IMG/VR virus record: IMGVR_UViG_3300035070_003385
Coordinates: 64,001-128,000 of that record
Source of the DNA: a virus
Length of the DNA: 64,000 nt
Direction: 5' to 3' (one strand)
Part shown: in pieces, positions 39,180-56,575 of the stretch
Numbering within the stretch: position 1 is the stretch's first letter
Layout of the letters: each line of letters starts with the position of its first letter
Translations under genes and position numbers: made by a program
The notes under the pieces: model-generated
What the model saw: the letters and a program-made list of their open reading frames with translations, nothing else
Told to the model about the DNA's origin: nothing
The model's database searches: none

Positions 39180-39187
39180 TATAAATA
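39180..39187 (+). promoter_or_regulatory. T4-type late promoter
   Basis: TATAAATA. Confidence 0.7.
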
Positions 39188-39218: not shown

Positions 39219-40514
39219 ATGATTTCGTTTAAAAAATATTTAAGAGAGAACAGTGAAATGCTTTTTGTGTCTCAGCAAGACAAGGCTAGATTTGATGCAG
39301 CCATTCAGCCATATACTTACACCGTAAAGAGTACAACAAATAACAAAACAGTATTGGTCGTTCGTTCTCAGAAAAATGATCGTGACTCTGTCAAGAAAAA
39401 TATAGAACAAAAATTAGATAAAGCAAACATAGATTACGAACTAAGCACATCCGGCGGGTCCGTCGGTTCTACTATCGTAAAGCTTGGATCTAAAAAGGTT
39501 CAAATTACATTTAAGCCAACGTCAGGGGGCATGTCAGAGACTACTCTTAATTCAACGATTACGGAGTTGGTTCCTTCTCTAGCATTTATGTCAAAGAAAA
39601 AGTTTTCAAACATAAACGACCTATATGATTTTATATCTGAAGCCGATGGAAACAAATATGGCGTATATGTAAATAGTAGAGACGCAGAAGCCGGTAAACA
39701 ATTTATCGAACAAATGCCAACGTCTTCAAAATATTCTGAAAAAATGGAAAACGCTTTAGCTATTTTAGACTATCTTAATGATTTAAACAAACAATCTCCT
39801 ATTCAACAAGTGTTTTGGGGTTATCGAGCGAAGCCAACCGGCATACCTGCGTCTCATAAAGGTGATTTATTCATCAAGTTTAAAAATAAAAATATGCTTG
39901 GCGTATCGCTTAAAGCTGGTGGTGAAAAAACCGCTGAACCTCAATTAAATACTTACGTGAATAAATTCTTTGATGATTTTTCGTATGCACGTGAAAAATC
40001 AGATCTACAGAAACTAATATTTAACAAAGTACATTCAAAACTTGGGTTACCTTTTGATTGGGACTCGAGAGGAAAGAAACGAAATTCAATTAAAATTATT
40101 ACAGAATTTAAGAAAAAGAATTCTAGAGAATACGAAAGTATGTACGACCAAATGCTTGATCTTATACGCGATGGTATTATAAGTGCAGTAAATAAGAATA
40201 AATCTAAAGCTATTGATTATATACAAAAACAAGTACTTAAAAAAGACAAAAACGTACCTTTAGTTGTCGTTAAAGCATTTGGTAATAAGTATAAAATGGT
40301 TACAGACGAAGATGATCTAGGAGCATTTTTGCCGAGGGTAAAAACTGTTAAAGCATATAAGTCTACCTCATCTAAACAAAATTGGTTTATTGAATTAAAC
40401 GCTGGTGGTAGCGAAAAGCTAACGATGAATATGTCAGTTCGTTCGAACAAATCTCCACCTGAAAATAAAATTGCTCAAGGTTTTAATCTTGCTATCAAAT
40501 TTAATGGAATTTAA
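39219..40514 (+). CDS. Putative PD-(D/E)xK-fold nuclease with CTS-like N-terminus
   Basis: MISFKKYLRE; HKGDLFI...GVSLKAG. Confidence 0.5.
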   Translation: MISFKKYLRENSEMLFVSQQDKARFDAAIQPYTYTVKSTTNNKTVLVVRSQKNDRDSVKKNIEQKLDKANIDYELSTSGGSVGSTIVKLGSKKVQITFKPTSGGMSETTLNSTITELVPSLAFMSKKKFSNINDLYDFISEADGNKYGVYVNSRDAEAGKQFIEQMPTSSKYSEKMENALAILDYLNDLNKQSPIQQVFWGYRAKPTGIPASHKGDLFIKFKNKNMLGVSLKAGGEKTAEPQLNTYVNKFFDDFSYAREKSDLQKLIFNKVHSKLGLPFDWDSRGKKRNSIKIITEFKKKNSREYESMYDQMLDLIRDGIISAVNKNKSKAIDYIQKQVLKKDKNVPLVVVKAFGNKYKMVTDEDDLGAFLPRVKTVKAYKSTSSKQNWFIELNAGGSEKLTMNMSVRSNKSPPENKIAQGFNLAIKFNGI

Positions 40515-40517
40515 TAA

Positions 40518-41759
40518 ATGATTCGTTTTAAAAAGTTTTTGTCCGAAGAAAAGAACCTGCACATGACACATGCAGAAGATGCTGTTATTGATGGCGGCAT
40601 TGTTGGTACACGAAACGTAATAAACTATCTTCGTGATATTAGAGATATGCTAGCAGGTAATACTAAAGCACCCGTCAATATTAGCGTCAAGTGGGATGGC
40701 GCACCAGCAGTATTTGCTGGCATCGATCCAAGTGATGGAAAATTCTTTGTAGCTAAAAAAGGTATTTTTAATAAGAACCCAAAGCTATATAAAACACACG
40801 CCGATATTGATGCTGATACCGTGGGTAAGGCAGAGCTAAATGCAAAACTAAAAATTGCGTTAGATGAATTTTCAAAACTAGGAATTAAAGGTGTAGTACA
40901 AGGCGATTTTTTATATGAAAAAAGTGATATTAAAGAAGATACGATTGACGGTGAACCGCATATTACTTTCCATCCTAATACGATTGTTTATGCGATACCT
41001 AAATCATCAAAGCTTGCTAAAACAATACTCAGATCCAAGGTCGGAGTGGTCTGGCATACTGTATACCGAGGATCAAGCCTTGAAAAAATGTCTGCAAATT
41101 TTGGAAAGGAGATTGCAAGCGGCCTTAAAACAGTCCCGTCGGTCTGGTCAGTAGACGCAGTATTCAAAGATCAATCTGGCAATGCAACATTTACCGCAAA
41201 AGAGACTGCTGATATTACAAAAATAATATCTCAAATTGGTTCACTGCTTAAGACAATTCCAAAAAACACATTTGATGCTCTCAAGCCAGGATCTCAGTAT
41301 GATATTAATATGCGCCTCAATACTTACATCAATACAAAAGTTCGCGCCGGCGAAAGAATTGGTAATCCAAAAACTTTTGTTAAAGGCTTTCAGAAATACT
41401 TAAGTGATTATTACGATAAAGAAATTGATAGTAAAAAATCGCCAAAAGGTAAAGCAACCTGGCAAGCTAAAAAAGATAATGCCATGATGTTTTTCAAAAA
41501 AGTCAAACCGCGCGATCTTGAAAATTTATTTACTATGTATAACCTAATCGTTGACGCAAAGCATACAATTATTCGTAAACTTGAAAACGTTGATGGCTTA
41601 AAAACACTACTTAAAACCAATAAAGGCTATGAAGTTACAGGGCAAGAAGGTTTTGTTGCAATTGATCGTTATGGTAAGAATGCGTTAAAACTTGTTGACC
41701 GCTTACAATTTTCAGCTGCAAACTTTTCAGATAAATATATTAAGGGATGGCAAAAGTAA
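40518..41759 (+). CDS. Ligase-superfamily nucleotidyltransferase-like protein (DUF6267-like) with CTS-like N-terminus
   Basis: MIRFKKFLSEE; KWDG (motif I), VQGDF (III), EGFV (IV), ALKL (V). Confidence 0.6.
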   Translation: MIRFKKFLSEEKNLHMTHAEDAVIDGGIVGTRNVINYLRDIRDMLAGNTKAPVNISVKWDGAPAVFAGIDPSDGKFFVAKKGIFNKNPKLYKTHADIDADTVGKAELNAKLKIALDEFSKLGIKGVVQGDFLYEKSDIKEDTIDGEPHITFHPNTIVYAIPKSSKLAKTILRSKVGVVWHTVYRGSSLEKMSANFGKEIASGLKTVPSVWSVDAVFKDQSGNATFTAKETADITKIISQIGSLLKTIPKNTFDALKPGSQYDINMRLNTYINTKVRAGERIGNPKTFVKGFQKYLSDYYDKEIDSKKSPKGKATWQAKKDNAMMFFKKVKPRDLENLFTMYNLIVDAKHTIIRKLENVDGLKTLLKTNKGYEVTGQEGFVAIDRYGKNALKLVDRLQFSAANFSDKYIKGWQK

Positions 41760-42544
41760 TGGCTATTTGGAACAAATTAACTCAAGCGTATTTACAAAAT
41801 AATAAAACTTTATTTGAAGCATTTATTCTAGCAGATAAAGACGGCAATATTATCAACTCATTTGGAGTTGCATCTAATATTCCAATTGCTGCGGGCGACG
41901 TTGACGGTTATGACCATATTAACAAATTTGGCGCAACTGATGGAGACGTTACAGCTGGAACTATCTGGGACGGTAATTCAGCAGCAGTAACATATCCGTA
42001 CCCAGCTGCCGGTGTTGTAGCTGTAACTTCTACTCAAAACAGTGGCGCATCAGTTGAAATCCAAGGTCTTGACGCAGACTACGCACCACAAACAGTAACG
42101 ACTACTATTGGTGGAACAACCACTGAAACATTTTCACGAGTATTTAGAGCTCGTATGGTAGATACTAATAACGATGCAGATGTTACTATCAATCAAGGTG
42201 GCGCTTTAGCTGCAAAAATTCTTGAAGATAAAGGCCAAACTCTTATGGCTGTTTATACTGTGCCGGCAGGTAAAACGGCGTATCTAATCAAAACTCAAAT
42301 GGGTTCTGACAAAGCATCAACCAATGCCTCGTTACAATATACATTGTTTGCAAGACCTTTCGGTGGTACATTTAATGTTAAAGGTATTTCGTACGCTGCC
42401 GGCGGTCAAAATGTTATTGTAGAATATCCAGTACCATTAAAGTTTGAAGAAAAGACAGATATTAAAATTGATGTTGTTGCTGCATCGGGTGGTCAAACTT
42501 GTTCAGCAATGTTTGACCTTATATTGGTAGACAACCCGACATAA
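41759..42544 (+). CDS. Hypothetical beta-rich protein, possibly virion-associated
   Basis: Thr/Gly/Ala-rich; INKFG, VFRARM, YTVPAGKTAY. Confidence 0.6.
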   Translation: MAIWNKLTQAYLQNNKTLFEAFILADKDGNIINSFGVASNIPIAAGDVDGYDHINKFGATDGDVTAGTIWDGNSAAVTYPYPAAGVVAVTSTQNSGASVEIQGLDADYAPQTVTTTIGGTTTETFSRVFRARMVDTNNDADVTINQGGALAAKILEDKGQTLMAVYTVPAGKTAYLIKTQMGSDKASTNASLQYTLFARPFGGTFNVKGISYAAGGQNVIVEYPVPLKFEEKTDIKIDVVAASGGQTCSAMFDLILVDNPT

Positions 42545-42675
42545 TGTCACGGTTGACACTAGTGAATACCGTCTATACCAAATTGGCAACCCAAATTAAG
42601 CCTTATTTTTACATTTCCTTAATAAATATAATTGTAATTCAATAAAAACAATCATATGCGTTAAGGAGATGCAAC

Positions 42676-42963
42676 ATGTCACACACACTTCAATCACAAT
42701 CTTTATATAAATTTATTACGTTATCAATAGTAATTGAAAAAATCAAAGCCTTGTTTGTAGCTTTAGACAAATTTATGTATAAGCGTGCATTAAGACGCCA
42801 ATCATATAGAGAATTATCCTCCCTTTCAAATAGAGAATTAAAAGACATTGGCTTGTGCCGTGGCGACATCATGGCTGTTGTTAACGACCAGTTTTACGGT
42901 GACTCTATCCGCGAAAAAGAAACAACTGCAGAAATAAACAAAAATCTTAAAGGGTGGGCATAA
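42676..42963 (+). CDS. DUF1127 family small protein
   Basis: RELSSLSNRELKDIGLCRGDI. Confidence 0.88.
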   Translation: MSHTLQSQSLYKFITLSIVIEKIKALFVALDKFMYKRALRRQSYRELSSLSNRELKDIGLCRGDIMAVVNDQFYGDSIREKETTAEINKNLKGWA

Positions 42964-42964
42964 T

Positions 42965-43162
42965 ATGTTAGAACGTATATACGCAAGATTAGAAATCATT
43001 GGTTATAGCAGAGCTATTGGTGCAATGATTGGATCACCAGGAATTACCGCAGCGCATATGAAAGGCATGTATGAAGCCCGCGAAGACGCAGTTCAAAGAT
43101 TAGCAAAGTTAAAAGCAATAACTAAAGAAGAAAGCTTTGGAAGAACACTATATAATGCTTAA
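42965..43162 (+). CDS. Small hypothetical protein
   Basis: Follows DUF1127 gene by 1 nt. Confidence 0.55.
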   Translation: MLERIYARLEIIGYSRAIGAMIGSPGITAAHMKGMYEAREDAVQRLAKLKAITKEESFGRTLYNA

Positions 43163-43265
43163 TTTTATATTAAATAGTATTAGCGCATTTAATAACGCAG
43201 TTCTTGCCTCAAAATTGTGTGAACAAGGCTACATAGAAGAAGCAAGAAAAGTAATGCTAAGATAA
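43155..43265 (+). CDS. 36-aa protein MLNFILNSISAFNNAVLASKLCEQGYIEEARKVMLR
   Basis: Overlaps previous stop; not in ORF track. Confidence 0.5.
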   Translation: MLNFILNSISAFNNAVLASKLCEQGYIEEARKVMLR

Positions 43266-43299
43266 CAGTAAATTTAGTATAATTAGGTTTGTAAGTAAA

Positions 43300-43307
43300 T
43301 ATAAATA
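43300..43307 (+). promoter_or_regulatory. T4-type late promoter upstream of the glycan cluster
   Basis: TATAAATA. Confidence 0.6.
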
Positions 43308-43310
43308 AAG

Positions 43311-43336
43311 GCAGGGACAAGTTCTCTGCTTTTTTT
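43311..43336 (+). terminator. Probable intrinsic terminator
   Basis: GCAGGGA-CAAGT-TCTCTGC followed by T run. Confidence 0.65.
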
Positions 43337-43356
43337 GTTAACAGGGATAATATACT

Positions 43357-43893
43357 ATGAAAGAATGGTTTGAAGGCAAGACCGTAGCGGTTGTAGGAAA
43401 TGCTGCATCTATCATACAACAGAAATATGGCGATGAAATAGATTCTGCGGATGTGGTTGTAAGAATCAATCGTGGTGGGTATCGGTTTCCTCAGTACAAA
43501 AAGCAGATGGGAACGCGTATTGATGTATGGTGTATGCAGAACATCCGACAGAACAAATCTCATTTTAACACTGCTCATAATAAAGGTGTTCTTAAAATGC
43601 AAATGGATACCGAAAGTGTATCTCCTAAATTTATAGAAATGGCCGATGTAGTGTTTTCTGAAGAGGATAGAATAGCTCTTGACAGCAACCTAACAAAGAA
43701 ATCCTCAACCGGGCTCAGAGTCCTCTATTACATTTCTAAACAGGATCCAAAGAGCGTACGCGTATATGGTTTTGATTGGAAAGAAACGTACTCTTGGCAC
43801 GAGAGAAGAAAGTGTGTTGCTCACGTTTTTAGCGAAGAAAAAGAATACTGCTTTAATAATTTTTTTAATAAACAATTCAAATTAAAGATTTAA
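43357..43893 (+). CDS. GT29 (sialyltransferase-like) glycosyltransferase 1
   Basis: Sialylmotif L VAVVGNA...GDEIDSADVVVRIN; motif S STGL...YGFD; HVFSEE. Confidence 0.8.
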   Translation: MKEWFEGKTVAVVGNAASIIQQKYGDEIDSADVVVRINRGGYRFPQYKKQMGTRIDVWCMQNIRQNKSHFNTAHNKGVLKMQMDTESVSPKFIEMADVVFSEEDRIALDSNLTKKSSTGLRVLYYISKQDPKSVRVYGFDWKETYSWHERRKCVAHVFSEEKEYCFNNFFNKQFKLKI

Positions 43894-44949
43894 ATGAAGT
43901 TTTTTGTAGCATCCTCTTCTAAGGCGACCGCTTCTTTTGCGAGTAGAGCACAGTGCCCAAGAATAAAGTATTTTTCTAGGAATAGAGTCATTCCAAGACG
44001 CGTTGTCCCTGAGAACTACATGCATAGCTTTAACAATGCTGATGTTTTAATTTTAAATGGAACTTGGGGTTCAGAAATTAGAAAGAACGCATATCTAGAA
44101 GGATACTTAAACGGAGATTATACAGACGGTTACATACCAGATATAGAATACGAATGTGATAGTATACCACGTTTAAATAGATCAGCAACATTAGATTATA
44201 TTAACGTTGAGCTCTTGAGGATGGCAAATGAACAAAATAAACCCGTAGTCGTATTTGAAAGCTCTACAGTGTCAAGAGCAGAAGCAAACTATGAAACGAC
44301 GTTTAACATTAAGGATTACGCGAGAGTAGGATTATATAGCTGGATGCACGGTGATGGAAAGTGGCTTCATCCTGATGATTTCGAATCTCTTCAGATAGTA
44401 AAAGCCCCTCGTTTGTATAATCATATTTGGAAACACGATAAAGATAACGGTGCAATATATATCTTTACCGGTTTTGAAATGGATCCAACGGGCACAAAAC
44501 ACCCAAAGGATTTTTTATTAGAAACAGTAGAAACAATAAGAAACAAAACGAACCGAAGAATATGCATAAAGGTTCATCCTATGTCTAAATTACAAAATTA
44601 CGTTAAAGAACTATTAATTGAGTATAAAAACATTCATATCATTGGTAAAAACATTACAATGCAAAACCTTTATCATGATATGTATTGTGCAGTGATTGAT
44701 AATTCAACGAGTATATTTGAATTGATAGACGCAGGAATACCGACCTTTTGTTCAAAAATGAACTTTGGTTCAGAACTATTGAATACGAACATAGAAAATA
44801 TATGTGATCCGTATCTTGCTCCAAAAAAAGAAGTCTTGGACTGGACTGTAAGAATGTCTTGCACAGAACTTCATAAAGACATCATACTGTCAGATGATAT
44901 AGTAACATACGTAGAAAAGTTAGTAAGGAGACACTGGGATGGATTTTAA
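43894..44949 (+). CDS. KpsS/KpsC-like (capsule synthesis, GT-B) protein
   Basis: IKVHP; NSTSIFELIDAGIPTF. Confidence 0.5.
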   Translation: MKFFVASSSKATASFASRAQCPRIKYFSRNRVIPRRVVPENYMHSFNNADVLILNGTWGSEIRKNAYLEGYLNGDYTDGYIPDIEYECDSIPRLNRSATLDYINVELLRMANEQNKPVVVFESSTVSRAEANYETTFNIKDYARVGLYSWMHGDGKWLHPDDFESLQIVKAPRLYNHIWKHDKDNGAIYIFTGFEMDPTGTKHPKDFLLETVETIRNKTNRRICIKVHPMSKLQNYVKELLIEYKNIHIIGKNITMQNLYHDMYCAVIDNSTSIFELIDAGIPTFCSKMNFGSELLNTNIENICDPYLAPKKEVLDWTVRMSCTELHKDIILSDDIVTYVEKLVRRHWDGF

Positions 44950-45502
44950 AGAGAATCAGCACGGAGGTGGAACAAACATTGACATAGAAGCGTTAAAATA
45001 TGCTATGAAAAAATGGAATGTAAATTCTATGATTGACATTGGTTGCGGCACGGGCGACCAAGTGTTCGAAGGAATAAAACTTGGTATAGATTCTTACGGT
45101 GTAGATGGTACACAATCAATACCAAATACCTCTAATTTTCAAAGAGTAGATTATCGTGTTGGAGCTTCAACGTTTGACAGAGAATTTGATTTAGGCTGGA
45201 GCGTGGAGTTTGTTGAACATATTGAAGAAGAATGCATACCTATTTTTATGAAAGATTTTCAGAAATGCAAGAGAGTTATATTAACAGCGGCTCCTCCTTT
45301 TTGGGGTGGTAAGAACCACGTAAACGAACAATCAGAAATATATTGGATTGATGTGTTCCAAAAATATGGTTTTAAAATAAATATTGAAGAGTCTTTGCTT
45401 TTAAGAAAGGCGTCTATAACGCTAATGAATAATAAAATAAGACCTCCACGACAACAATTTGTGTCAATAAGAGGTCTCGTATTTGAAATAAATAATAAAT
45501 GA
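44939..45502 (+). CDS. Class I SAM-dependent methyltransferase
   Basis: MIDIGCGTG, GVDG, EFVEHI, GKNHVNEQ. Confidence 0.85.
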   Translation: MDFKENQHGGGTNIDIEALKYAMKKWNVNSMIDIGCGTGDQVFEGIKLGIDSYGVDGTQSIPNTSNFQRVDYRVGASTFDREFDLGWSVEFVEHIEEECIPIFMKDFQKCKRVILTAAPPFWGGKNHVNEQSEIYWIDVFQKYGFKINIEESLLLRKASITLMNNKIRPPRQQFVSIRGLVFEINNK

Positions 45503-46404: not shown

Positions 46405-47192
46405 AAACAATTAGCGCAGTTACGTGTTTCAATCTTCAAGGATGGAGAGAAACTGGTGGTCTTTTAGTACAAGGGTTTATAAAAAATTGGCCTGATGACG
46501 TGTCACTAACTGTTTATGTTGACAATCCAATTCCAAAAAAAGATTTAATAAGAGATCCAAGAGTTTCGTATAAAATATTAAATTATAAAGATCTTATTTC
46601 CTTTAAGGATAGACATAAAAACAATCCTGAAGCAAATGGATTGGGAAAATATGCTTCGAAAGGAGCTTCAAATTATCGCTATAACGCTGTGCGATTTAGT
46701 CATAAAGTATTTGCTCTTTTTCAATTTTTACAAGAAAATAAAACTGATATTTTAATATGGTTAGATGGAGATAGCAGAACACATTCACCAGTTAAAAGAA
46801 GTGACATATCAAATTGGTGCCCAGAAGGAAAGTTTGCAGGATATCTTGCCCGCCCTTGGATGTATACTGAAACCGGATTTCACATCTTTAATATGAATCA
46901 TGACATTGCTAAAGACTTTTTAAATGCATGGAAACAATATTATTTAGATGACAGTATTTTTAAATTAGAGTTTTGGACTGATTGTCATACATATGACGCG
47001 GCAATGCAAAACTTTAATCAAATACATTGGCATAACCTAAGCCCGCAAATTAAAAACAACCATCCTTTCATCAACGGGCCTCTTGGAGAATTTATGGATC
47101 ATATGAAAGGTCCAAGAAAACAAAAAGGAACTAGTCATAAAAAAGATCTTGTTGTTCAAAGAAAAACTTCGTATTGGAATAACGTAAAATGA
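46401..47192 (+). CDS. GT-A fold glycosyltransferase
   Basis: AVRFSHKV, IWLDGD (DxD), ETGF, DHMKG. Confidence 0.7.
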   Translation: MKTISAVTCFNLQGWRETGGLLVQGFIKNWPDDVSLTVYVDNPIPKKDLIRDPRVSYKILNYKDLISFKDRHKNNPEANGLGKYASKGASNYRYNAVRFSHKVFALFQFLQENKTDILIWLDGDSRTHSPVKRSDISNWCPEGKFAGYLARPWMYTETGFHIFNMNHDIAKDFLNAWKQYYLDDSIFKLEFWTDCHTYDAAMQNFNQIHWHNLSPQIKNNHPFINGPLGEFMDHMKGPRKQKGTSHKKDLVVQRKTSYWNNVK

Positions 47193-48073: not shown

Positions 48074-48075
48074 CA

Positions 48076-50234: not shown

Positions 50235-50770
50235 AAATAGTAATCACTGGCCATACGAGTGGTCTTGGAAAAACATTGTATGAAACCTTTTCAAAAAATC
50301 ATGAAGTCGTAGGATTGAGTCGAGCAACTGGTAATGATTTAAATGATGGTGTTAATTCTTTTTTAATAAATGATTTTGATTTATATATTAATAATGCGCA
50401 TTGTAAATACTTTCAAACAGATCTTTTATATGAATTGTTTAAAAAAAATAAATATAGAGAGTGCACAATACTTAATATTGGAAGTGTAAGTGCTGACGGT
50501 AATAAAGACACAGTTAACGAATATGCCATTTATAAATCCTCTCTTGAAAAGGCATGTTCGCAGCTGCAGCTTATTGACACTGATTGCAAAATAATTCATA
50601 TGAAGCTAGGAAGAATGAATACTCCTATGACTGAGCACAGAAAAGAATATCCTAGGATGGGAACCGATTACATAACTAATATTATCGAATGGATTGTGAA
50701 TCAGCCAAAAGAAATAATAATAAAAAATTTGACATTAGATATAATGCACAGTAGAAGGAAACTTGTATAA
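50231..50770 (+). CDS. Short SDR-family oxidoreductase
   Basis: ITGHTSGLG, INNA, NIGS, YAIYK. Confidence 0.75.
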   Translation: MKIVITGHTSGLGKTLYETFSKNHEVVGLSRATGNDLNDGVNSFLINDFDLYINNAHCKYFQTDLLYELFKKNKYRECTILNIGSVSADGNKDTVNEYAIYKSSLEKACSQLQLIDTDCKIIHMKLGRMNTPMTEHRKEYPRMGTDYITNIIEWIVNQPKEIIIKNLTLDIMHSRRKLV

Positions 50771-51447
50771 TGATACCAATTTTTATGGGATACGATAAAA
50801 GAGAAGCAACTGCGTATCATGTTTGTGCTAACTCTATTATTCGTCATGCAACATCCCCAATAAGTTTAAATCCTTTATCACTTAATCTCTTAAATGGTTA
50901 CGAAGAAAAACATTCTGATGGCAGTAATCATTTTATATATAGTCGATTTCTTATTCCACATTTAATGGAATATAAAGGCTGGGCAATTTTTATTGACGGG
51001 GATATGATATTACGTGATGACATATCAAAGCTTTGGGAAATGCGAGACGAATCAAAAGCAGTCATGGTAGTAAAGCATGACTATAAAACTAAAACAGCTA
51101 AAAAATATTTAGGATCAAAAAACGAAGATTACCCTCGAAAAAATTGGTCAAGTGTAATTTTATGGAACTGTGAACATCCTGAAAATAGAATTGTTACTAC
51201 AGATTTTGTTTCAAATGCAACTGGCGCACAAGTTCACAGATTTACATGGTTAGAAGATAATTTAATTGGTGAATTGCCTATTGAATGGAATTGGCTGCCA
51301 GACGAATTTGGTCCAAATAAAAATGCTAAACTATTACATTACACTTTAGGTACTCCGTGTTTTCACGACTTTGCAACAACGTCTATGGCAGATGAATGGC
51401 ACCGCGAAAGAATATATATGGATTACAGTCAACAATACGGATTATGA
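50770..51447 (+). CDS. GT8-like glycosyltransferase
   Basis: SRFLIP, FIDGDM, PRKNWSSV, WNWL, LHYTLGTP. Confidence 0.8.
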   Translation: MIPIFMGYDKREATAYHVCANSIIRHATSPISLNPLSLNLLNGYEEKHSDGSNHFIYSRFLIPHLMEYKGWAIFIDGDMILRDDISKLWEMRDESKAVMVVKHDYKTKTAKKYLGSKNEDYPRKNWSSVILWNCEHPENRIVTTDFVSNATGAQVHRFTWLEDNLIGELPIEWNWLPDEFGPNKNAKLLHYTLGTPCFHDFATTSMADEWHRERIYMDYSQQYGL

Positions 51448-51453
51448 TATATT

Positions 51454-51963
51454 ATGAAAGAAGTATTTGAAGGTAAAACAGTTTCTGTTGTTGGCAATGC
51501 AAGAAGTTTGTTTAATAAAAAATACGGAAATGAAATAGATTCTGCAGATGTAGTTTGTAGGATTAAAAGAGGGTTTTTTCTACTCAAACCATCTGATATT
51601 ATTTCACATGGTGCAAAAACGAATGTTTGGTTTTTAAACTGGTTTAAAACAATGAATCCGAACAAAGTAACCAATAAAAAATGTGATAATATTATTGAAA
51701 TTTTACATCATCCTGAAATAAATAAAGAGTGGTTAGTAAAAGATTTAGGCCACCACCGCCCGTCAACTGGGTTAAGAATATTACATTTAATATCTTTATA
51801 TAACCCAAAGACTGTAAATGTTTACGGTTTTGATTGGAAAGAAACCCCATCGTTTCATGATAAAAAAATGATTGATGAAAGACATAATTTTGCCTTAGAA
51901 AAAGATTATTGTAATAGGCGGTTTTTTGAAAAACAAAAAGAGGTTTTTAAATTAAGAAAATGA
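51454..51963 (+). CDS. GT29-like glycosyltransferase 2
   Basis: VSVVGNA...GNEIDSADVVCRI; PSTGL; YGFD; HNFALE. Confidence 0.8.
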   Translation: MKEVFEGKTVSVVGNARSLFNKKYGNEIDSADVVCRIKRGFFLLKPSDIISHGAKTNVWFLNWFKTMNPNKVTNKKCDNIIEILHHPEINKEWLVKDLGHHRPSTGLRILHLISLYNPKTVNVYGFDWKETPSFHDKKMIDERHNFALEKDYCNRRFFEKQKEVFKLRK

Positions 51964-52520
51964 AAGAATGGTTTGAAGAAAAAACTGTTGCTGTAGTTGG
52001 AAACTCTATGGGACTGTTCAGTAAAAAATATGGAAACGAAATTGATTCGCACGACGTTGTAGTACGCTTAAATAAGGCGGCTATGTTATACACGAGAATG
52101 AATGTTCCGCTGAGTCATGGAAGTAAAAGTGACATTTGGGTGTTTTGGAATACTTCCGAATATAAGTTATTCTTTGAAAAAATACCAAAACATGTTAAAA
52201 AAATGCATGCGGGTCATCAGGCCAGGACTCCTAGTAATCTTAGCAAAGTAGATTTTGTGTACCCAGATTCTTTATATAAACACTTGAAGTTAAAATCAGG
52301 TAAACATAAAAATCCTACAACAGGTTTAATTACATTAGATTATATATCAACGTGCAATCCAAAAAGTGTTACCGTTTATGGGTTTGATTGGAAAGAAACC
52401 GCAACGTTTACAGATCCAGAAAGGAAAAGAGAACGTGGATGTCCGCATGATTATCCTGTAGAAAAGGAATATTGTATGACAACATTTTTTTCGAAGAATA
52501 ACTTTACTTTAAAAATCTAA
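51960..52520 (+). CDS. GT29-like glycosyltransferase 3
   Basis: VAVVGNS...GNEIDSHDVVVRLN; PTTGL; YGFD; HDYPVE. Confidence 0.8.
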   Translation: MKEWFEEKTVAVVGNSMGLFSKKYGNEIDSHDVVVRLNKAAMLYTRMNVPLSHGSKSDIWVFWNTSEYKLFFEKIPKHVKKMHAGHQARTPSNLSKVDFVYPDSLYKHLKLKSGKHKNPTTGLITLDYISTCNPKSVTVYGFDWKETATFTDPERKRERGCPHDYPVEKEYCMTTFFSKNNFTLKI

Positions 52521-52532
52521 TATCATCAATAT

Positions 52533-52540
52533 TATAAATA
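52533..52540 (+). promoter_or_regulatory. T4-type late promoter
   Basis: TATAAATA. Confidence 0.7.
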
Positions 52541-52571
52541 AAATATAATTCATATGACCTAGGGGTATTTC

Positions 52572-54860
52572 ATGGTTGAGAAGAAAAAAAATAAAAAAGA
52601 TCTTAAAAAAATAAAAGATCATAATCCTAGTGATTATATTGAAACAAAGCCAACTATGTCCGAGGCTTTGAAGAAAACTGTGGTTATAACTTTTGGTAGG
52701 TTTAACCCTATTACAGTTGGACACGAAAAATTAATAAACAAAGTAATAACAGAAGCTGTAAAGCGCAAGGCTGATGCTGCAGTTTATATGTCACATTCTC
52801 AAGATTCAAAAAAGAACCCTATGAGTTATAATCAAAAAATATCTCTTGGGCAAAAAGCTTTTGGCGGAATTGTAAAAAAATCACCAGCAAAAACAATCAT
52901 TGAAGTAGCTAAAGAATTATCTAAAAAATATAATAATTTTGTACTTGTTGTTGGGTCTGATAGAGTTAAAGAATTTGAAGTTCTTTTGAAAAAATATAAT
53001 GAATTAGATTATACTTTTGAAAATATCGAAATAGTTTCTGCTGGTGAAAGAGATCCTGATTCTGACGGCGTGTCCGGAATGTCAGCATCAAAGATGCGAC
53101 AGTCAGCTGCAAAAGGAAATATTGTTTCTTTTAAACAGGGGTTGCCTAAAAAGTTAAAAATATCCGCAGTGTCTATAATGAACATGGTTCGTAAAGGTAT
53201 GAATATTACAGAAGAACTTGAAGAGCAAAATCTTTCAGAAAGAGAACCGCTTTCAATTCAACAAAGACGTAAAAAAGCTTTGGTAATGAGAAAGTATAAA
53301 ACAAAAATAAAAATGGCTCGTGAAAGATCCAAAAGAAAAATGGCCCCAAAAGAAAAGTTATTAAAAAGATCTAGAAAAGCAGCTCTTAATTTTATGAAAG
53401 ATAGATTATCTAAAAATAAAAAGTATTCTCAAATGTCTACCGCAGAAAAAATTACTTTAGATAGAAGATTGCAAAAAATTCCTGGCAAAACAATAGATCG
53501 TATTGCGTCTCGTCTTTTACCTAAAGTTAGAGCCGCCGAAAAAGAACGTCTTGCTGGTGTTTTAAATCCAAAAAAGAATGAAGATGTTTATGATATAAAC
53601 AATATGTTTGAACTATTTTTAGAATCAAAATCAATAAAACCTCAAGATCCTGATGTAAAAGATATGCCTGGTTCACAGCCAAAGGGTTATTACAAAGGTG
53701 TTGAAAAAGATAAAAAAGATGATAGAGCTAGACATTTTGCCAAGTACGGTAAAATGGACGATGATAATCCTGATGCATATAAACCAGCACCTGGTGATAA
53801 AGAAGCTAAAACAAAACCGTCTGTTCATACAAAAAAATTTAAAGATATGTTTGGCGAAGCTATACACGCTGATATACCAATTCGCAAAAGACCGCATATG
53901 GCTTTAGAAAAAAACGGCTCTGTTAAATTTGACAAGCGGTTTAAAATATTCAAGCCAAAAGAAGACACTGTAAGTGAAACCTACGAGGACTTTGGCGAAG
54001 ATATATCAAAACTTATTTCTGGTATGAGTGATTTTATTATGTCTGAAGAATTTGATGTTTTAATGGAATCAAATCCAAAAGCAGCACTTAAGAAAAAAGC
54101 AGAAAAAACCGGAATATCATATGGTATATTAAAAACAGTTTTTGATAGGGGGGTCGCTGCCTGGAGAACAGGTCATCGCCCAGGAACAAACCCAACACAA
54201 TGGGGGTTTGCCAGAGTTAATTCGTTTGCTACCAAAGGTAAAGGAACCTGGGGAAAAGCAGACAAAGACTTAGCTGACAAAGTTAGAAAGGAACAGTTTG
54301 ATTTGGCAACAGGACAAGAGCAACTCTTAAACCTTGATGAACAAATTATGCTAAATAAAATTCTTGAAAAAATACATAATCATATTTTAAATGGCGAAAA
54401 ATTAAAAGACGTAATTGAAGAAATTGAAACTCTTGCGAATATTGGAATTCCAGGGCGCCGTCTAGAAACAGAATATTTTAAAAAATATAATAACGAGCAT
54501 GCAGATCTTACACAAAATGAAGACACTGAAAGTTTATTAAAAAGAAATCAACTTCTTAAAAAATATGGATATAAAGTTGAGGCAAAAGACGAAAAAGATT
54601 CTCCATCGAAAAGAGAATACGGTACTGATGCTTTAACAAAAAAATATAAAGAAGATACTCCAGGGCAAGAAATTGAAGAAGCAGCATTAAATGCAAATAT
54701 ATACCGTGGTGATGTAATAAAGTTTATGCATACTTATGTGACTGGCGAAAAAGATGAATTAGAAGGAACCCTTGTAGGAACCGATTCAGAAACAGGGCGC
54801 GCAAAAATAAGAACAGGGGACGGTAAATTGTATATCGTAAAACACGATGAAATCATTTAA
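52572..54860 (+). CDS. Multidomain protein: HxGH nucleotidyltransferase plus basic modules (DUF5824-like)
   Basis: TFGRFNPITVGHEKL, VVGSDRV, SASKMR; later RGVAAWRTGHRPG...WGFARVNSF. Confidence 0.8.
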   Translation: MVEKKKNKKDLKKIKDHNPSDYIETKPTMSEALKKTVVITFGRFNPITVGHEKLINKVITEAVKRKADAAVYMSHSQDSKKNPMSYNQKISLGQKAFGGIVKKSPAKTIIEVAKELSKKYNNFVLVVGSDRVKEFEVLLKKYNELDYTFENIEIVSAGERDPDSDGVSGMSASKMRQSAAKGNIVSFKQGLPKKLKISAVSIMNMVRKGMNITEELEEQNLSEREPLSIQQRRKKALVMRKYKTKIKMARERSKRKMAPKEKLLKRSRKAALNFMKDRLSKNKKYSQMSTAEKITLDRRLQKIPGKTIDRIASRLLPKVRAAEKERLAGVLNPKKNEDVYDINNMFELFLESKSIKPQDPDVKDMPGSQPKGYYKGVEKDKKDDRARHFAKYGKMDDDNPDAYKPAPGDKEAKTKPSVHTKKFKDMFGEAIHADIPIRKRPHMALEKNGSVKFDKRFKIFKPKEDTVSETYEDFGEDISKLISGMSDFIMSEEFDVLMESNPKAALKKKAEKTGISYGILKTVFDRGVAAWRTGHRPGTNPTQWGFARVNSFATKGKGTWGKADKDLADKVRKEQFDLATGQEQLLNLDEQIMLNKILEKIHNHILNGEKLKDVIEEIETLANIGIPGRRLETEYFKKYNNEHADLTQNEDTESLLKRNQLLKKYGYKVEAKDEKDSPSKREYGTDALTKKYKEDTPGQEIEEAALNANIYRGDVIKFMHTYVTGEKDELEGTLVGTDSETGRAKIRTGDGKLYIVKHDEII

Positions 54861-55152
54861 ACAACATATAAAAAATACTCCAAATTTAAAAGAGCAACAT
54901 TCAAACTGTGGTACTCAACAGTGTTGTGGTAAATGCAGCACTGCAGTTACAGAAGGCTCAGAAACTTGGGAAGCTGGTTATAAGCGTAGAGTAGTCAAAA
55001 CTACAAAACCAGAGCACAAAGAAAAAGGTATGAATTGGAGAATTAAAGGTAAAGACCGTCCTGAAATTTCCATTAAATTGTATAAAGAAAAACCTTCCCA
55101 GGAAGAATTCAACAAACAAATGAAACGTGTTGCAGGACACGAGTTCGGATGA
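54847..55152 (+). CDS. Small protein with CTS-like N-terminus and Cys cluster
   Basis: MKSFKQHI; CGTQQCCGKC. Confidence 0.7.
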   Translation: MKSFKQHIKNTPNLKEQHSNCGTQQCCGKCSTAVTEGSETWEAGYKRRVVKTTKPEHKEKGMNWRIKGKDRPEISIKLYKEKPSQEEFNKQMKRVAGHEFG

Positions 55153-55715
55153 AAAGATTTAAGCAATACATATCAGAAGAAACAGAAACACTTAATGAAA
55201 GCGCACTTAAAGCTTTACGGGTTGCTACTAAAGCCCATTCAGGACAGACACGTAAAAGCGGTGGTAAATATATTGAGCATCCAAAAGAAGTTGCTCGGTT
55301 CGTACAAAAGTTTAAAAAATCAAACAATCTTTCGGCGTTAGTACAGGCGGCTTATCTACACGATACTATTGAAGATACTGATACAACATATGATGATTTG
55401 GTTAAACAGTTTGGTGCTCTTATAGCTGATATGGTTCAGGAATTAACAACTGATAAAGCTGCATCTGATGCAATTGGTAAAGGTGAATATATTGCCAATA
55501 AGATGGCTAAAATGTCAAGTTGGTCATTAGTTATTAAACTCGCAGATAGATTAGCAAACGTACAAGACATTGATACACGGCCTGCAGATTTTCAAAAGAA
55601 ATATGCTGCACAGACTGCGCTTGCTATTAAACGTCTTCGTAGTGATAGATATTTAAGTAAAACACATAATAAAATCATATCAGCTATTGAGAAAAAAATT
55701 AAAGAATATGTATAG
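55149..55715 (+). CDS. HD-domain small alarmone hydrolase (SpoT/Mesh1-like) with CTS-like N-terminus
   Basis: MKRFKQYISE; KAHSGQTRKSG..YIEHP, AAYLHDTIEDT, IKLADRLAN. Confidence 0.88.
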   Translation: MKRFKQYISEETETLNESALKALRVATKAHSGQTRKSGGKYIEHPKEVARFVQKFKKSNNLSALVQAAYLHDTIEDTDTTYDDLVKQFGALIADMVQELTTDKAASDAIGKGEYIANKMAKMSSWSLVIKLADRLANVQDIDTRPADFQKKYAAQTALAIKRLRSDRYLSKTHNKIISAIEKKIKEYV

Positions 55716-56001
55716 TTTCAAACAATATATTTCCGAAGGTATCATGGTTAAACTGATTCGTGGTAAAGGCCAGGATACTTTAAAAATGAGAGACACTAAA
55801 GAAAAAAGTTGGGTTGAATTACGAGGTAAACCTAATTTTGAAACTAAATATGATAAAAGAGATCCATTACATAAAGCAATTACAGCATTAGGTAAATCGG
55901 CAAATATATCTGATTTTATGAACGGTGATGAAGTCAGTATTAATCCAAACCATCCTGACGGTAAAAAGGCATTGGCAGCAATGAAGAAGTTAATGAAATG
56001 A
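55708..56001 (+). CDS. Small protein with CTS-like N-terminus
   Basis: MYSFKQYISE; ATG overlaps previous gene end. Confidence 0.7.
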   Translation: MYSFKQYISEGIMVKLIRGKGQDTLKMRDTKEKSWVELRGKPNFETKYDKRDPLHKAITALGKSANISDFMNGDEVSINPNHPDGKKALAAMKKLMK

Positions 56002-56306
56002 AAAATTTTAAAAAATTCTTAGAAGAAAAAGATCCTCGATTGGCGAAGGCTGGAGTGGATGGTTATAATAAACCAAAAAGAACTCCTAGTCATCCTACTA
56101 AAAGTCATATTGTCGTTGCTAAAGACGGTAATAAAATTAAAACTATTAGATTTGGTGAGCAAGGCGCATCCACTGCCGGTGATCCAAAAAAAGGTGAATC
56201 TGATAGAATGAAGGCTAAGAGAAAATCGTTTAAAGCACGCCATGCTAAAAATATCGCTAAAGGTAAAATGTCTGGGGCATATTGGGCAGATAAAGAAAAG
56301 TGGTAA
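55998..56306 (+). CDS. Basic protein (DUF6321-like) with CTS-like N-terminus
   Basis: MKNFKKFLEE; GYNKPKRTP.HPTKSHIVVAK; RKSFKARH; AYWADKEKW. Confidence 0.75.
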   Translation: MKNFKKFLEEKDPRLAKAGVDGYNKPKRTPSHPTKSHIVVAKDGNKIKTIRFGEQGASTAGDPKKGESDRMKAKRKSFKARHAKNIAKGKMSGAYWADKEKW

Positions 56307-56356
56307 TTTAAATTTGATAAATATTAACAGTAATCAGGAACAAAGGTCTAAAACAA

Positions 56357-56575
56357 ATGAAAAGTTTTAAGCAATTTACACTTAATGAAAAAGTCAAGGT
56401 TGAATGCCCTAAATGTGATGGTGCTGGCTGTGATCATTGTGACGGTAAAGGTTATCACGCCGAACCTGAGCTTAACGAGTTATCCGCCGAAGAAAAAAAA
56501 CTTGTTAATCAAATGTACGATAAAAAGGGTAACTTAACACCACTTGGTAAAAAAGTTATGAACTATAATAAATAA
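56357..56575 (+). CDS. Small zinc-finger protein with CTS-like N-terminus
   Basis: MKSFKQFTLNE; CPKCDGAGCDHCDGKG. Confidence 0.7.
   Translation: MKSFKQFTLNEKVKVECPKCDGAGCDHCDGKGYHAEPELNELSAEEKKLVNQMYDKKGNLTPLGKKVMNYNK

Follow-up and report, generated by a model that had tools for sequence, protein, structure and literature searches.

A peptide resembling the T4 capsid targeting sequence heads seven proteins with unrelated bodies in an uncultured marine T4-like phage

A shared start on seven proteins

Seven ORFs in the genome of an uncultured marine T4-like phage begin with one ten-residue peptide, and the protein bodies behind it are unrelated. This tag is the same as the peptide that loads proteins into the T4 head, which makes it probable that ready-made enzymes reach the cell along with the phage DNA. 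By this analogy, the decapeptide would be a T4-type capsid targeting sequence (CTS), and the proteins bearing it would be loaded in the head, cut, and delivered with the DNA; the probability of this reading is put at about 0.65.

The window analyzed here is a 64,000-nt stretch of IMGVR_UViG_3300035070_003385, the whole contig of which has 87,134 bases and 139 called ORFs. Positions are those of the window, and all features located below are on the + strand. The DNA polymerase of this phage is 43% identical to that of cyanophage S-RIM2.

An earlier sequence-only reading had claimed the decapeptide on seven unrelated ORFs, and the ORF translations place it at all seven of the starts then named. 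The first group contains MISFKKYLRE (39219) and MIRFKKFLSE (40518); the second contains MKSFKQHIKN (54847), MKRFKQYISE (55149), MYSFKQYISE (55708), MKNFKKFLEE (55998), and MKSFKQFTLNE (56357). The consensus is M-[K/I/L]-[S/T/R]-F-[K/R/S]-x-[F/Y/H]-[I/L]-x-E. Two tags deviate from it. In the tag at 54847, correctly described earlier as the weakest, position 10 is N instead of Glu and the first [IL]-x-E is at residues 14-16; in that at 56357, the Glu is at position 11. The earliest possible start of the fifth tagged ORF is the TTG at 55687, and the ATG at 55708 yields the tag. In BLAST clustering at E 1e-4, with single linkage via about 160 relatives, the seven bodies fall into seven separate clusters. 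The tag codons vary synonymously among the seven genes, which places the conservation at the protein level and not in a DNA repeat.

Agreement with the T4 capsid targeting sequence

In the T4 record, IPII and IPIII begin with MKTYQEFIAE and IPI with MKTFKEFT, and the proposed identity of the tag with this internal-protein pattern agrees with all three starts. In T4 genetics, targeting depends on residues 4 and 7 and processing on residues 8 and 10, according to a review of the T4 CTS (Mullaney and Black 1996, via PMC9026906). The tag agrees with the T4 CTS at each of these critical residues. When the tag profile was weighted over 26 cargo families, F reached 1.00 at position 4, F/Y/H 1.00 at position 7, and I/L 0.88 at position 8, positions 1, 4, 7, and 8 being fixed by the search pattern. 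Glu was found at position 10 in 0.93, the pattern having allowed positions 10-12. Of the free positions, 2 favours K and 3 favours S/T, which is also the preference in T4.

The likeness thus concerns an N-terminal peptide of about ten residues and nearly identical sequence, with aromatics at 4 and 7 and I/L-x-E at 8-10. It extends to the unrelated bodies behind the peptide, the late-promoter context, the basic cargo, and the membership of the T4 superfamily, in which the relatives of this phage encode the gp21 protease. There are also differences. The phage represents a distant marine lineage, its cargo extends beyond small basic proteins to enzyme folds of 188-431 aa, and seven tagged genes are present in 87 kb, with at least 26 cargo families in relatives. 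Moreover, the T4 peptide is a proven capsid signal, and the tag of this phage is a predicted one.

Variable internal-protein loci of T-even phages, which are close T4 relatives in enterobacteria, are described in the same review as combining a conserved CTS-like start with changing bodies at a fixed locus, and are read as an arms-race cassette (Repoila et al. 1994, via PMC9026906). Similarly, the slot between gp41 and DUF6267, upstream of the latter, hosts many unrelated tagged families in the relatives of the present phage. Among the literature matches listed for "capsid targeting sequence", no title reported one for marine or cyanobacterial T4-like phages, and the addition of "cyanophage" gave the T4 review alone.

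Specificity of the motif

Every ATG, GTG, and TTG in six frames was screened with the fixed pattern M-x-x-[FYW]-K-[KQERH]-[FYHWIL]-[ILVTM]. There were nine matches in the window, and the same nine in the 87,134-base contig; seven are the ORFs above, one falls on an ORF of 32 aa at 59407, and one is an internal start at 62431. A second, looser pattern matched 10 of 4,165 candidate starts in the contig, seven of them being the claimed gene starts among 139 ORFs. The off-target rate of 3/4,158 predicts 0.10 matches at 139 gene starts (Poisson P for seven or more, 1.9e-11). Thus, in the genome-wide scan that the sequence-only reading had proposed, the motif marks the seven starts and almost nothing else in the contig. 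Of the tag matches across 80 related loci (1.09 Mb), 161 lie on the coding strand and a single one on the opposite strand. On T4, the same patterns picked ipI, ipII, ipIII, and gp61.1 among the annotated genes. Genome-wide scans of C48C1, Melnitz, G001, S-CREM2, and T4 revealed no early-gene starts with an equal motif rate.

These counts bear directly on the notion that composition or translation-start preference produced the resemblance, without shared function, in an A+T-rich phage with Lys-rich, AAA-rich starts. The genome has a G+C content of 31-39%, MK is a frequent start among the genes of the contig, and the late-promoter motif TATAAATA is, as such, not enriched in the window (13 found vs 11.2 expected). 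The seven matches against 0.10 expected and the strand bias in relatives, however, bring this explanation close to refutation. In addition, F4, the aromatic residue at 7, I/L at 8, and E10 are retained despite codon variation, the looser pattern does not find the tag on the other 132 ORFs of the contig, other late ones included, and the N-termini of orthologues fall at the tag boundary. A compositional origin is therefore very improbable.

Genes of the two tagged groups

The first group lies just downstream of the gene for a gp41-type replicative helicase (37499..38971), which serves as a synteny anchor; the order of helicase and then tagged gene is common to Melnitz, HTVC008M, S-PM2, and S-SCSM1. 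In T4, an anti-toxin island with dmd, tifA, and adfA/61.2 is located between genes 41 and 61 (bioRxiv 10.1101/2022.04.14.488369), and the first tagged group is likewise directly behind gene 41. The T4 island also contains gp61.1, which starts with MKTFKEFIKE. Unlike the delivery considered here, its genes of known function are described as expressed after injection, packaging not being known for them, and the tie between the two regions is positional only.

Both groups had been placed downstream of promoters, and a T4-type late-promoter motif TATAAATA indeed lies 31 nt before an ATG in each case, at 39180..39187 before ATG 39219 and at 52533..52540 before ATG 52572; the latter ATG opens an operon containing the five small tagged ORFs. 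Among the 90 tagged ORFs that lead a cluster in relatives, the motif precedes 41 at a distance of 21-41 nt; for comparison, it is present in 39 of 1,800 random 100-nt windows. The presumed late status of the tagged genes is taken from this promoter motif only.

The first tagged ORF (39219..40514; 431 aa, phrog_2496) has a nucleotidyltransferase-like N-domain and a HinP1I-like PD-(D/E)xK nuclease domain. Its AF2 model has a pLDDT of 93.2, and Foldseek matched it to HinP1I (E 5.8e-4, prob 1.00) and MspI (3.4e-3). By VIA, residues 99-431 of the model resemble HinP1I (Z 8.5, 211 residues aligned), and residues 1-102, a small domain, resemble Cid1-type nucleotidyltransferases (Z 7-8). D216, S230, and K232 are invariant in 46 sequences. 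The second (40518..41759; 413 aa) belongs to DUF6267 (Pfam E 1.5e-104), the domain beginning at residue 13. In 26 sequences, M1, F4, E10, and K58-W59-D60-G61 are invariant. VIA gave T. brucei RNA editing ligase 1 (Z 7.1, residues 58-215) and a tRNA ligase (Z 5.8), which weakly suggests that this model represents a candidate ligase-like nucleotidyltransferase. Residues 1-14 of the model have a pLDDT below 50.

The operon of the second group starts with a 762-aa NMNAT-like cytidylyltransferase with DUF5824 (52572..54860; Pfam CTP_transf_like and DUF5824, phrog_3041), whose match to TIGR00482 is below the family cut-off. It does not have the canonical tag, whereas its orthologues in S-CREM2, S-SCSM1, and Melnitz are tagged. 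The tagged ORFs follow. The third (54847..55152; 101 aa) is Cys-rich, and its G001 orthologue begins with MKSFKEH. The fourth (55149..55715; 188 aa) is a small alarmone hydrolase of the RelA/SpoT/MESH1 HD type, with matches to Pfam HD_4 (E 2.4e-16, from residue 22), to MESH1/HDDC3 (E 1.4e-16), Rel/SpoT hydrolase domains, and small alarmone hydrolases in the PDB, and to the N-terminal part of TIGR00691. The fifth (55708..56001; 97 aa) belongs to a conserved viral family in which all seven members, the window's included, have 97 aa and the tag; its own viral cluster was the sole match in the Atlas. The sixth (55998..56306; 102 aa, phrog_7595) is very basic, with a predicted mature pI of 10.4, and its PHROG alignment begins at residue 10, directly past the tag. 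The seventh (56357..56575; 72 aa) is zinc-ribbon-like, with two CxxCxGxG-type Cys pairs and weak matches to DUF7895 and YnfU. The next gene in the operon (56605..56919) is untagged and belongs to phrog_613, a "head protein" family; a putative counterpart in S-SCSM1, ORF95, which has the same MALWG start, is flagged as a virion protein in the published data.

The nuclease-like, alarmone hydrolase, and basic-protein labels of the sequence-only reading were thereby borne out. The RNA-ligase-like label received weak support from the invariant KxDG and the RNA ligase match, and of the zinc-finger label there stands the Cys-rich character of the proteins at 54847 and 56357, with Cys pairs in the latter.

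Portability of the tag

In 80 viral contigs of relatives, proteins of at least 26 unrelated families begin with the tag. The phrog_7595 protein is untagged in four phages that are not T4-like and tagged in six from T4-like contigs, counting that of the window. Cyanophage DUF6267 proteins (3/3) begin with M[A/S]KNTHLEHLED or MATQNKHLEHLED, which is the start that the window protein would have if cut at E10. The Pfam and PHROG models of the cargo begin past the tag, and the tag stretches have low model confidence (pLDDT 28 and 59-64). The tag had been called modular, and a single cargo family indeed occurs with or without it according to the type of phage.

In the nuclease-like family, 54 of 80 loci lack the canonical tag, as do 48 of 49 cytidylyltransferase orthologues and the three cyanophage DUF6267 proteins. 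DLP_6 has it on DUF6267 only, HTVC008M has no convincing tag, and in the scaffold proteins of C48C1 and Melnitz no tag-like repeat was found. Between close relatives, the set of cargoes changes quickly.

The genes for DUF6267 and the cytidylyltransferase are the centres around which tagged genes gather in complete relatives. This arrangement may indicate a propeptide or recognition signal unrelated to head loading. It might act as a zymogen-type lock that a protease takes off late, activating dangerous enzymes in the cytoplasm, or as a handle for one of these two proteins; holding a nuclease inactive would be of benefit. DUF6267, however, is itself tagged, and the T4 ip genes, where the peptide is a proven capsid signal, adjoin neither gene. 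One tag of G001 is within the head module, and in S-CREM2 the tagged ORF6, ORF14, and ORF136 are far from the cytidylyltransferase, yet are reported in virions. Such a signal is accordingly improbable, though less so than a compositional origin.

Head proteins and virion proteomes of relatives

The gp20-gp23 genes, gp21 included, were not found in the contig, which is rated 43% complete, so the presence of a gp21 protease is deduced from relatives. PF03420 (gp21) is present in all five complete cultured relatives and in four of five long IMG/VR relatives, among them the two with 100% completeness. Of the complete relatives, G001 is the nearest, with 114 of the 139 ORFs in common at 74% mean identity.

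The published virion proteome of S-CREM2 contains the products of all four annotated starts with a tag match: ORF6 (SAM lyase), ORF14 (kinase-like), ORF136, and ORF154 (cytidylyltransferase). With n=4, a proteome of 52 proteins, and a record of 221 annotated features, the hypergeometric P is 0.0028; the S-CREM2 authors caution that virion proteomes can contain abundant contaminants. S-SCSM1 gives a mixed replicate. Its virion-detected NMNAT starts with MKSFLQFLKE, a tag recognized by eye since L at position 5 fails the fixed pattern, and proteins from adjacent genes of the syntenic operon are flagged as belonging to the virion. The one annotated start that matches the fixed pattern, ORF30 (MKTFKQFMSE, 106 aa), is not flagged in the virion data available, and ORF90, whose N-domain is homologous to that of the 431-aa protein of the window, is flagged and untagged. 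The tag is thus neither necessary nor sufficient for virion association in every relative. The reports on these virions consider NMNAT/cytidylyltransferase, SAM hydrolase, and kinase as possibly encapsidated (PMC10665884, PMC9602691). They concern the same gene neighbourhood and cytidylyltransferase family, and virion proteins in them start with the tag; the available text, by contrast, mentions no shared N-terminal signal. Virion association of tag-bearing proteins is observed only in relatives and is indirect evidence for the present phage.

Delivery with the DNA or a function in the head

In the proposed mechanism, tagged precursors would bind the prohead scaffolding core late in infection via the N-terminal part of the tag, chiefly through the aromatics at positions 4 and 7. 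A gp21-type prohead protease would then cut after the Glu of [I/L]-x-E, and the mature basic proteins would remain beside the DNA inside the head and accompany it into the next host. The cargo would comprise the HinP1I-like nuclease, the ligase-like DUF6267 protein, the alarmone hydrolase, three small proteins (two of them Cys-rich), and the very basic protein.

Alternatively, the tag may load proteins that work in the head, as core, scaffold-associated, DNA-condensing, or assembly proteins, and not as injected counter-defence effectors. With a pI of at least 9.5, six of the seven are strongly basic (only 14% of the other 132 ORFs reach 9.4, median 6.0), as expected for DNA-associated head fillers, and three of the seven gave no enzyme signature in Pfam, PHROG, Atlas, and TIGR searches. 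In G001, a 382-aa ORF starting with MKTFKTLVSE is in the head module between portal and gp21, and in C48C1 a 65-aa ORF starting with MRTFKELRE is between portal and protease. In contrast, an alarmone hydrolase, a HinP1I-like nuclease, and the SAM lyase of S-CREM2 have no obvious capsid role, and the quick turnover of cargo is more in keeping with accessory functions than with structural components. T4 internal proteins are, moreover, reported to be injected, and IPI* to block a restriction enzyme (PMC13326640, PMC9026906). A function confined to the head is therefore unlikely, although it is the stronger of the alternatives considered.

We infer packaging, cleavage, and injection in this phage by analogy with T4, and likewise that the cargo may act before phage transcription, in takeover or counter-defence. 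The sequence-only reading, which had proposed such a delivered set of enzymes, is in this way partly supported, namely in its T4 CTS match, modularity, promoters, and most of its cargo labels.

The ejection proteins of giant phages have a cleavage motif and propeptides unlike the tag, and to our knowledge no short common N-terminal decapeptide has been described for them. Propeptide-bearing ejection proteins of SPN3US and phiKZ are reported to be cleaved by the prohead protease (PMC5694885). The likeness to the system proposed here is that a gp21-related protease would process many head-internal proteins, which would then pass into the host by ejection.

The N-terminal tag and its specificity in the contig

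The peptide of about ten residues with which seven ORFs of this phage begin, here called the tag, is probably a head-loading propeptide; a probability of about 0.65 is assigned to this reading. The ORFs are named by their start in the window. The first group, 39219 (431 aa) and 40518 (DUF6267, 413 aa), follows the gp41 helicase gene, while 54847, 55149, 55708, 55998 and 56357 are small ORFs of a second operon that starts at 52572 with a cytidylyltransferase. All seven starts were confirmed in the sequence. When a fixed pattern of the tag was scanned at every start in six frames, the seven ORFs and two poor matches were recovered, and the result was identical for the window and for the whole contig. 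With a looser second pattern, 10 of 4,165 candidate starts matched, 7 of which are the gene starts in question among 139 ORFs. The off-target rate gives 0.10 matches expected at gene starts vs the 7 found (P = 1.9e-11).

Within the tag, position 4 is F and position 7 is F, Y or H in all seven proteins; position 8 is I or L, except for a T in one tag, and position 10 is E in five of the seven. As a sequence motif, [I/L]-x-E is located at positions 8-10 in 5/7 tags. In ORF 56357 the L-x-E is displaced by one, to 9-11, and in ORF 54847 the first L-x-E appears only at residues 14-16. The bodies behind the tags show no mutual relationship, in line with the sequence-only reading, which had called these ORFs unrelated. 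Tag codons vary among the seven genes and the upstream DNA is not in common, which places the selection on the peptide.

The same differences in codons and upstream DNA rule out a DNA repeat or recombination cassette as the source of the motif. A signal peptide is ruled out as well, because the hydrophobic stretch is missing in the sequence.

The phage and its relatives

The window was taken from the minus strand of a viral contig of 87,134 bases. It encodes replication and late-transcription proteins of the T4 type, among them UvsX, the gp41 helicase and a gp55-like late sigma factor, and its DNA polymerase is 43% identical to the counterpart in cyanophage S-RIM2. The nearest complete relative found is G001 (IMG/VR; 201,055 bases, terminal repeats), which has 114 of the 139 called ORFs of the contig in common with it at a mean amino-acid identity of 74%; its size points to a complete genome of about 200 kb for the present phage too. 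Within the T4 superfamily, this uncultured marine phage belongs near Melnitz, C48C1 and HTVC008M, which are Kyanoviridae-like.

The gp21 prohead protease (PF03420) is absent from the contig itself, a fragment that CheckV rates as 43% complete. PF03420 was found in all five complete cultured relatives (Melnitz, HTVC008M, C48C1, DLP_6 and S-CREM2), in T4 and S-SCSM1, and in four of five long IMG/VR relatives, including both complete ones, with G001 among the positives.

Comparison with the capsid targeting sequence of T4

In the T4 record, the internal proteins IPII and IPIII begin with MKTYQEFIAE and IPI begins with MKTFKEFTSTTTPVSTITE. The proposed match of the tags to this capsid targeting sequence (CTS) holds at positions 4, 7, 8 and 10 for most of the seven. 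According to passages of a T4 review (PMC9026906), targeting by the CTS proceeds mainly via residues 4 and 7 and processing via residues 8 and 10, the first ten residues of IPIII are enough for head incorporation, the propeptide is 10-19 residues long, and foreign proteins up to the size of beta-galactosidase can be loaded. The CTS is suggested there as a possibly general loading route for varied proteins in T4-like phages. Another article describes IPI* as an inhibitor of a restriction enzyme (PMC13326640). Our literature searches found no report of a CTS in marine or cyanobacterial T4-like phages, and no literature on DUF6267.

As a positive control, the same patterns were applied to the whole T4 genome, where the annotated genes matched were ipI, ipII, ipIII and that of gp61.1. 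The last is a hypothetical protein of 54 aa with the start MKTFKEFIKE, a near-perfect CTS (NC_000866, 18966-19130; 967-1131 on the minus strand of our locus L205). Its neighbours, which like it lie downstream of gene 41, are adfA (61.2), dmd and tifA of the 'anti-TA island'. The uncharacterised gene 61.1 is thereby flagged as a candidate: judged by its sequence, gp61.1 may be a fourth CTS-type protein that has escaped notice in T4. A preprint describes the stretch that follows T4 gene 41 as an anti-toxin island (bioRxiv 10.1101/2022.04.14.488369), and the first tagged group of the window, which follows gene 41, occupies the same position.

Portability of the tag across relatives

A DUF6267 search provided a sample of 80 related viral contigs (1.09 Mb). 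These contain 162 ATG starts that match the tag, 161 on the coding strand vs 1 on the other strand. With the tag removed, the bodies of these matches cluster into at least 26 unrelated families. The slot just upstream of DUF6267 is filled in the related contigs by many differing tagged families, with sizes of 201, 236-333, 258-265, 309-336, 351-412, 366-368, 429-435 and 443-448 aa. The modularity proposed for the system is thus borne out by the seven unrelated bodies here, by the number of families in relatives and by orthologues with and without the tag. The system is probably that of the T4 CTS, used here by a distant marine lineage whose cargo includes enzymes and spans many families.

A family-weighted profile of the tag was built from sequences preselected by patterns that fix positions 1, 4, 7 and 8 and demand a Glu at 10-12; the one minus-strand match and matches with more than 60 open codons upstream were left out. 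Free observations in this profile are limited to positions 2, 3, 6 and 9 and to where exactly the Glu falls; K is preferred at position 2 and S or T at position 3, and the Glu is at exactly position 10 in 93%, though 10-12 was permitted.

The closest 120 homologues of DUF6267, read by eye and uncounted, nearly all begin with the tag. Five of them start downstream of it, likely because the genes were called too short, and in a group of 4 it is preceded by three additional residues. In an alignment of 26 DUF6267 sequences, M1, F4 and E10 are invariant. DUF6267 proteins of cyanophages (S-PM2, P-HM2 and S-CAM9; 3/3) begin with M[A/S]KNTHLEHLED or MATQNKHLEHLED, an N-terminus equivalent to the start of the window protein if cut at E10 (MIRFKKFLSE removed from EKNLHMTHAED). 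Members of phrog_7595, the family of ORF 55998, are untagged in four non-T4-like phages (CRP-1, S-EIVl, P12053L and KBS-S-2A) and tagged in the window copy and in five homologues from T4-like contigs. The Pfam and PHROG models begin past the tag, and in the structure models of both 39219 and 40518 it appears as a low-confidence N-terminal extension.

Lineage differences and alternative N-termini

Genome-by-genome counts indicate that tag usage differs between lineages. In C48C1 (156 kb), six canonical tagged ORFs are all located at 57-72 kb around DUF6267 and the cytidylyltransferase, with two loose matches elsewhere, and Melnitz has four tagged ORFs at 12-21 kb; matches of under 40 aa, or preceded by over 40 open codons, were excluded from the scan of these two genomes. 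G001 contains orthologues of four of the seven window ORFs (13641, 14940, 28661 and 28977), plus a 382-aa ORF beginning with MKTFKTLVSE. The latter (86893-85745, minus strand; 5745-6893 of our locus L255) lies in the head module, flanked by the genes of the portal (557 aa) and of the gp21 protease (228 aa), and its PHROG matches are solely to families without known function. DLP_6 has the tag on DUF6267 only, and HTVC008M has no convincing tagged ORF. No copy of the tag-like unit F-x-x-[FYH]-[ILMV]-x-E was found among the head-module ORFs of C48C1 and Melnitz. [IL]-x-E is abundant in the scaffolds of these two phages (17 in 361 aa and 11 in 421 aa), which is weak evidence on protease specificity.

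Homologues of 39219, the nuclease-like family, carry the tag in 26 of 80 loci and other N-termini, such as MSIRKYYRQINPVKES or MATKIDPVVKILNQY, in the remaining 54. Among untagged members (loci L142-L188), many share other conserved N-termini, MSIRKYYRQINPVKES or M..K..P...ILNQY.YE, and several of these alternatives contain [IV]-x-E. The alternative N-termini of this family may, from their sequence, represent a second, divergent address peptide.

Only 1 of 49 cytidylyltransferase orthologues has the canonical tag. In about 13 of them a Lys-rich stretch is followed by GFKEFDP..YI..EPTL.EA (loci L013-L044 and others), 11 are nearly without extension (3 residues or fewer ahead of the domain), and the window copy (52572-54860) has a degenerate extension with the aromatic residues missing. 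The GFKEFDP..YI..EPTL.EA form combines an FKEF core with a distal L-x-E and recalls a long propeptide of the IPI type, but is off the very N-terminus. Untagged orthologues of these kinds imply that the tag is one among several N-terminal solutions. Virion association is possible for untagged proteins too.

Tagged proteins in virion proteomes

The tag was compared with the published virion proteomes of two cyanophage relatives, S-CREM2 and S-SCSM1. Table 3 of the S-CREM2 article lists 52 virion proteins with coordinates (PMC10665884). A scan of the whole S-CREM2 genome gave six pattern matches, of which two are off-target (one inside nrdA, one a 16-aa ORF). The other four are annotated starts: ORF6 (MKDFDSFLEE), ORF14 (KRFDAFLTE after a GTG start), ORF136 (MQTFSMFFSE) and ORF154 (MKNFSSFLTE). 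All four are entries of Table 3, for which the chance is 0.0028, given 52 proteins among 221 annotated features. In the same article, six 'non-structural' proteins are said to be ones that 'may be encapsulated' (PMC10665884), and three of the four tagged ORFs belong to these six.

ORF6 of S-CREM2 matches the Pfam S-AdoMet_lyase family (E 2.3e-19). Near-tags were found in other virion proteins of its gene cluster: ORF13 (MKDLHSFLTE), ORF15 (MNFSEFNE) and ORF12 (RFASFMAE at residues 18-25). ORFs 6 and 12-15 (OR473000, 3837-13331, minus strand; locus L207) form a cluster of virion-detected non-structural proteins, comprising a SAM lyase, a large protein named a Cas9-like nuclease by the authors, a kinase-like protein and two small ORFs. 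All members have a tag or near-tag, and the cluster gives a cyanophage in culture as the second case of a 'tagged kit'.

The NMNAT of S-SCSM1 begins with MKSFLQFLKE and, according to an excerpt of the published account, was detected in the virion (PMC9602691). It misses the fixed pattern because of the L at position 5, and its tag was recognised by eye. In the S-SCSM1 record, virion flags are attached to ORFs 89-93, 95 and 97 of the syntenic operon, and ORF90 has an N-domain with homology to the 431-aa protein of the window (hhalign probability 97.1%, E 6e-11). The sole annotated start of S-SCSM1 that fits the fixed pattern is that of ORF30 (MKTFKQFMSE, 106 aa), which is without a virion flag. 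Lists of virion proteins comprise 23 proteins for S-SCSM2R (PMC12801897) and 14 for S-CREM1.

Cargo of the tagged proteins

The sequence-only reading had assigned enzyme-like functions to the cargo, and these labels fared unequally. The nuclease-like label for 39219 is sustained by a HinP1I-like fold match on the predicted structure (pLDDT 93.2). Residues ~99-431 match HinP1I (Foldseek E 5.8e-4, probability 1.00) and MspI (3.4e-3), and VIA gives a Z of 8.5 with HinP1I over 211/247 residues with an rmsd of 4.3. Residues 1-102 resemble minimal nucleotidyltransferase folds (VIA, Z 7-8). D216, S230 and K232 are invariant in the family and are candidates for the acidic ... x-K catalytic motif of PD-(D/E)xK restriction endonucleases of the HinP1I/MspI type.

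The RNA-ligase-like label for 40518, a Pfam DUF6267 protein, stands in part. In its favour are the invariant K58-W59-D60-G61, which fits the KxDG motif I of ligases, the likewise invariant E377-G378 and K391, and weak fold matches on residues 58-215 (VIA: RNA editing ligase Z 7.1, tRNA ligase Z 5.8). The ligase reading depends on the Z of 7.1, which is middling on the scale of that tool. Foldseek found T4 Rnl1 at E 0.045 and no match at E <=0.001. Profile searches against PDB sequences gave 0 matches for DUF6267 and one for the 431-aa family, at E 0.66.

In PHROG 455, one profile of 764 positions spans both DUF6267 and the cytidylyltransferase (window 40518-41759 and 52572-54860). This indicates that the two are fused in some phages and probably work together.

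ORF 55149 is a predicted small alarmone hydrolase of the RelA/SpoT-homologue HD type, and its earlier label agrees with the RelA/SpoT/MESH1-type hydrolase seen by sequence. It matches Pfam HD_4 at E 2.4e-16, above the cut-off, and MESH1 at E 1.4e-16; small alarmone hydrolases were also matched. Its sequence contains LHDTIEDT, a type of motif (HD and ED, metal- and substrate-binding) that we take to be diagnostic of RelA/SpoT-homologue hydrolases. ORF 55998, labelled a basic protein, is indeed very basic and is widespread in marine phages, and the zinc-finger label holds as far as 56357 and 54847 are Cys-rich. No match to 54847 or 55708 was found in Pfam, PHROGs or NCBIfam, and an Atlas search with 55708 found only its own viral cluster.

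Proposed loading and possible role in infection

Few viruses on Earth are more abundant than the T4-like phages that infect cyanobacteria, SAR11, OM43 and other marine bacteria, and to our knowledge hardly any of the proteins that they inject with their DNA have been identified. With the tag as a head-loading propeptide, tagged proteins would bind the prohead core, cleavage in the prohead would follow the Glu of the tag, and the mature proteins would be retained in the head with the DNA. Injection into the host along with the DNA may follow, by analogy with T4, and the cargo might then act early against host defence or stress signalling. Such early action is suggested by T4 IPI*, which blocks a restriction enzyme, by the SAM lyase in the S-CREM2 virion, and by the location of the first tagged group after gene 41, the site of the T4 anti-toxin island. 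The SAM lyase family is anti-restriction in phage T3.

A wider proposal is advanced tentatively, with the odds somewhat against it: in marine T4-like phages, one universal ten-residue address would load a fast-changing enzyme arsenal, injected with the DNA and disarming host defences and stress signalling before phage genes are read. The arsenal would include the alarmone hydrolase, the restriction-like nuclease, the ligase-like enzyme, NMNAT, the SAM lyase and the kinase-like protein. If this were true, the T4 anti-toxin island would have its packaged counterpart in the variable tagged slot that follows gene 41, and the tag alone would suffice to predict injected effectors from sequence across ocean viromes.

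If the tag is a working capsid address, injected proteins would become predictable from sequence in thousands of uncultured genomes. It would account for the 'non-structural' enzymes in cyanophage virion proteomes, such as NMNAT, SAM hydrolase and kinase, and would make the T4 CTS an old signal, conserved throughout the T4 superfamily and far past the T-even phages. An alarmone hydrolase or nuclease that arrives pre-packaged would add a new kind of tool for early takeover or anti-defence.

Late promoters, charge and neighbouring genes

The T4-type late-promoter motif TATAAATA is located 31 nt ahead of the first gene in each of the two groups, in agreement with the promoters proposed for them. 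Over the whole window the motif is not enriched (13 found vs 11.2 expected); all but one of the 13 copies lie on the coding strand, where 8 of the 12 precede a start codon by 23-67 nt. In related contigs, exact TATAAATA was found 21-41 nt upstream of 41/90 tagged ORFs that lead a cluster, and in the control a copy was present in 39 of 1,800 random 100-nt windows. Judging from the promoter motif and the gp55-like sigma factor, the tagged groups are probably expressed late. A scan for sigma-70 promoters over 38500-58400 was uninformative (84 found vs 84.8 expected).

Six of the seven tagged proteins have a pI of at least 9.5. The median of the remaining 132 ORFs is 6.0, and 14% of them reach 9.4.

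A strong terminator-like hairpin (43300-43333; 11 pairs, then a T-run) starts at the final base of a TATAAATA motif and sits 49 nt before the ORF at 43357. This ORF (43357-43893) is one of three paralogues, with those at 51454-51963 and 51960-52520, that start with MKEWFEGKTVAVVGN or a close variant. The paralogues flank a block of ~9 kb between the two tagged groups, which contains sugar- and nucleotide-sugar-modifying genes that are aminotransferase-, epimerase- and glycosyltransferase-like by length and sequence.
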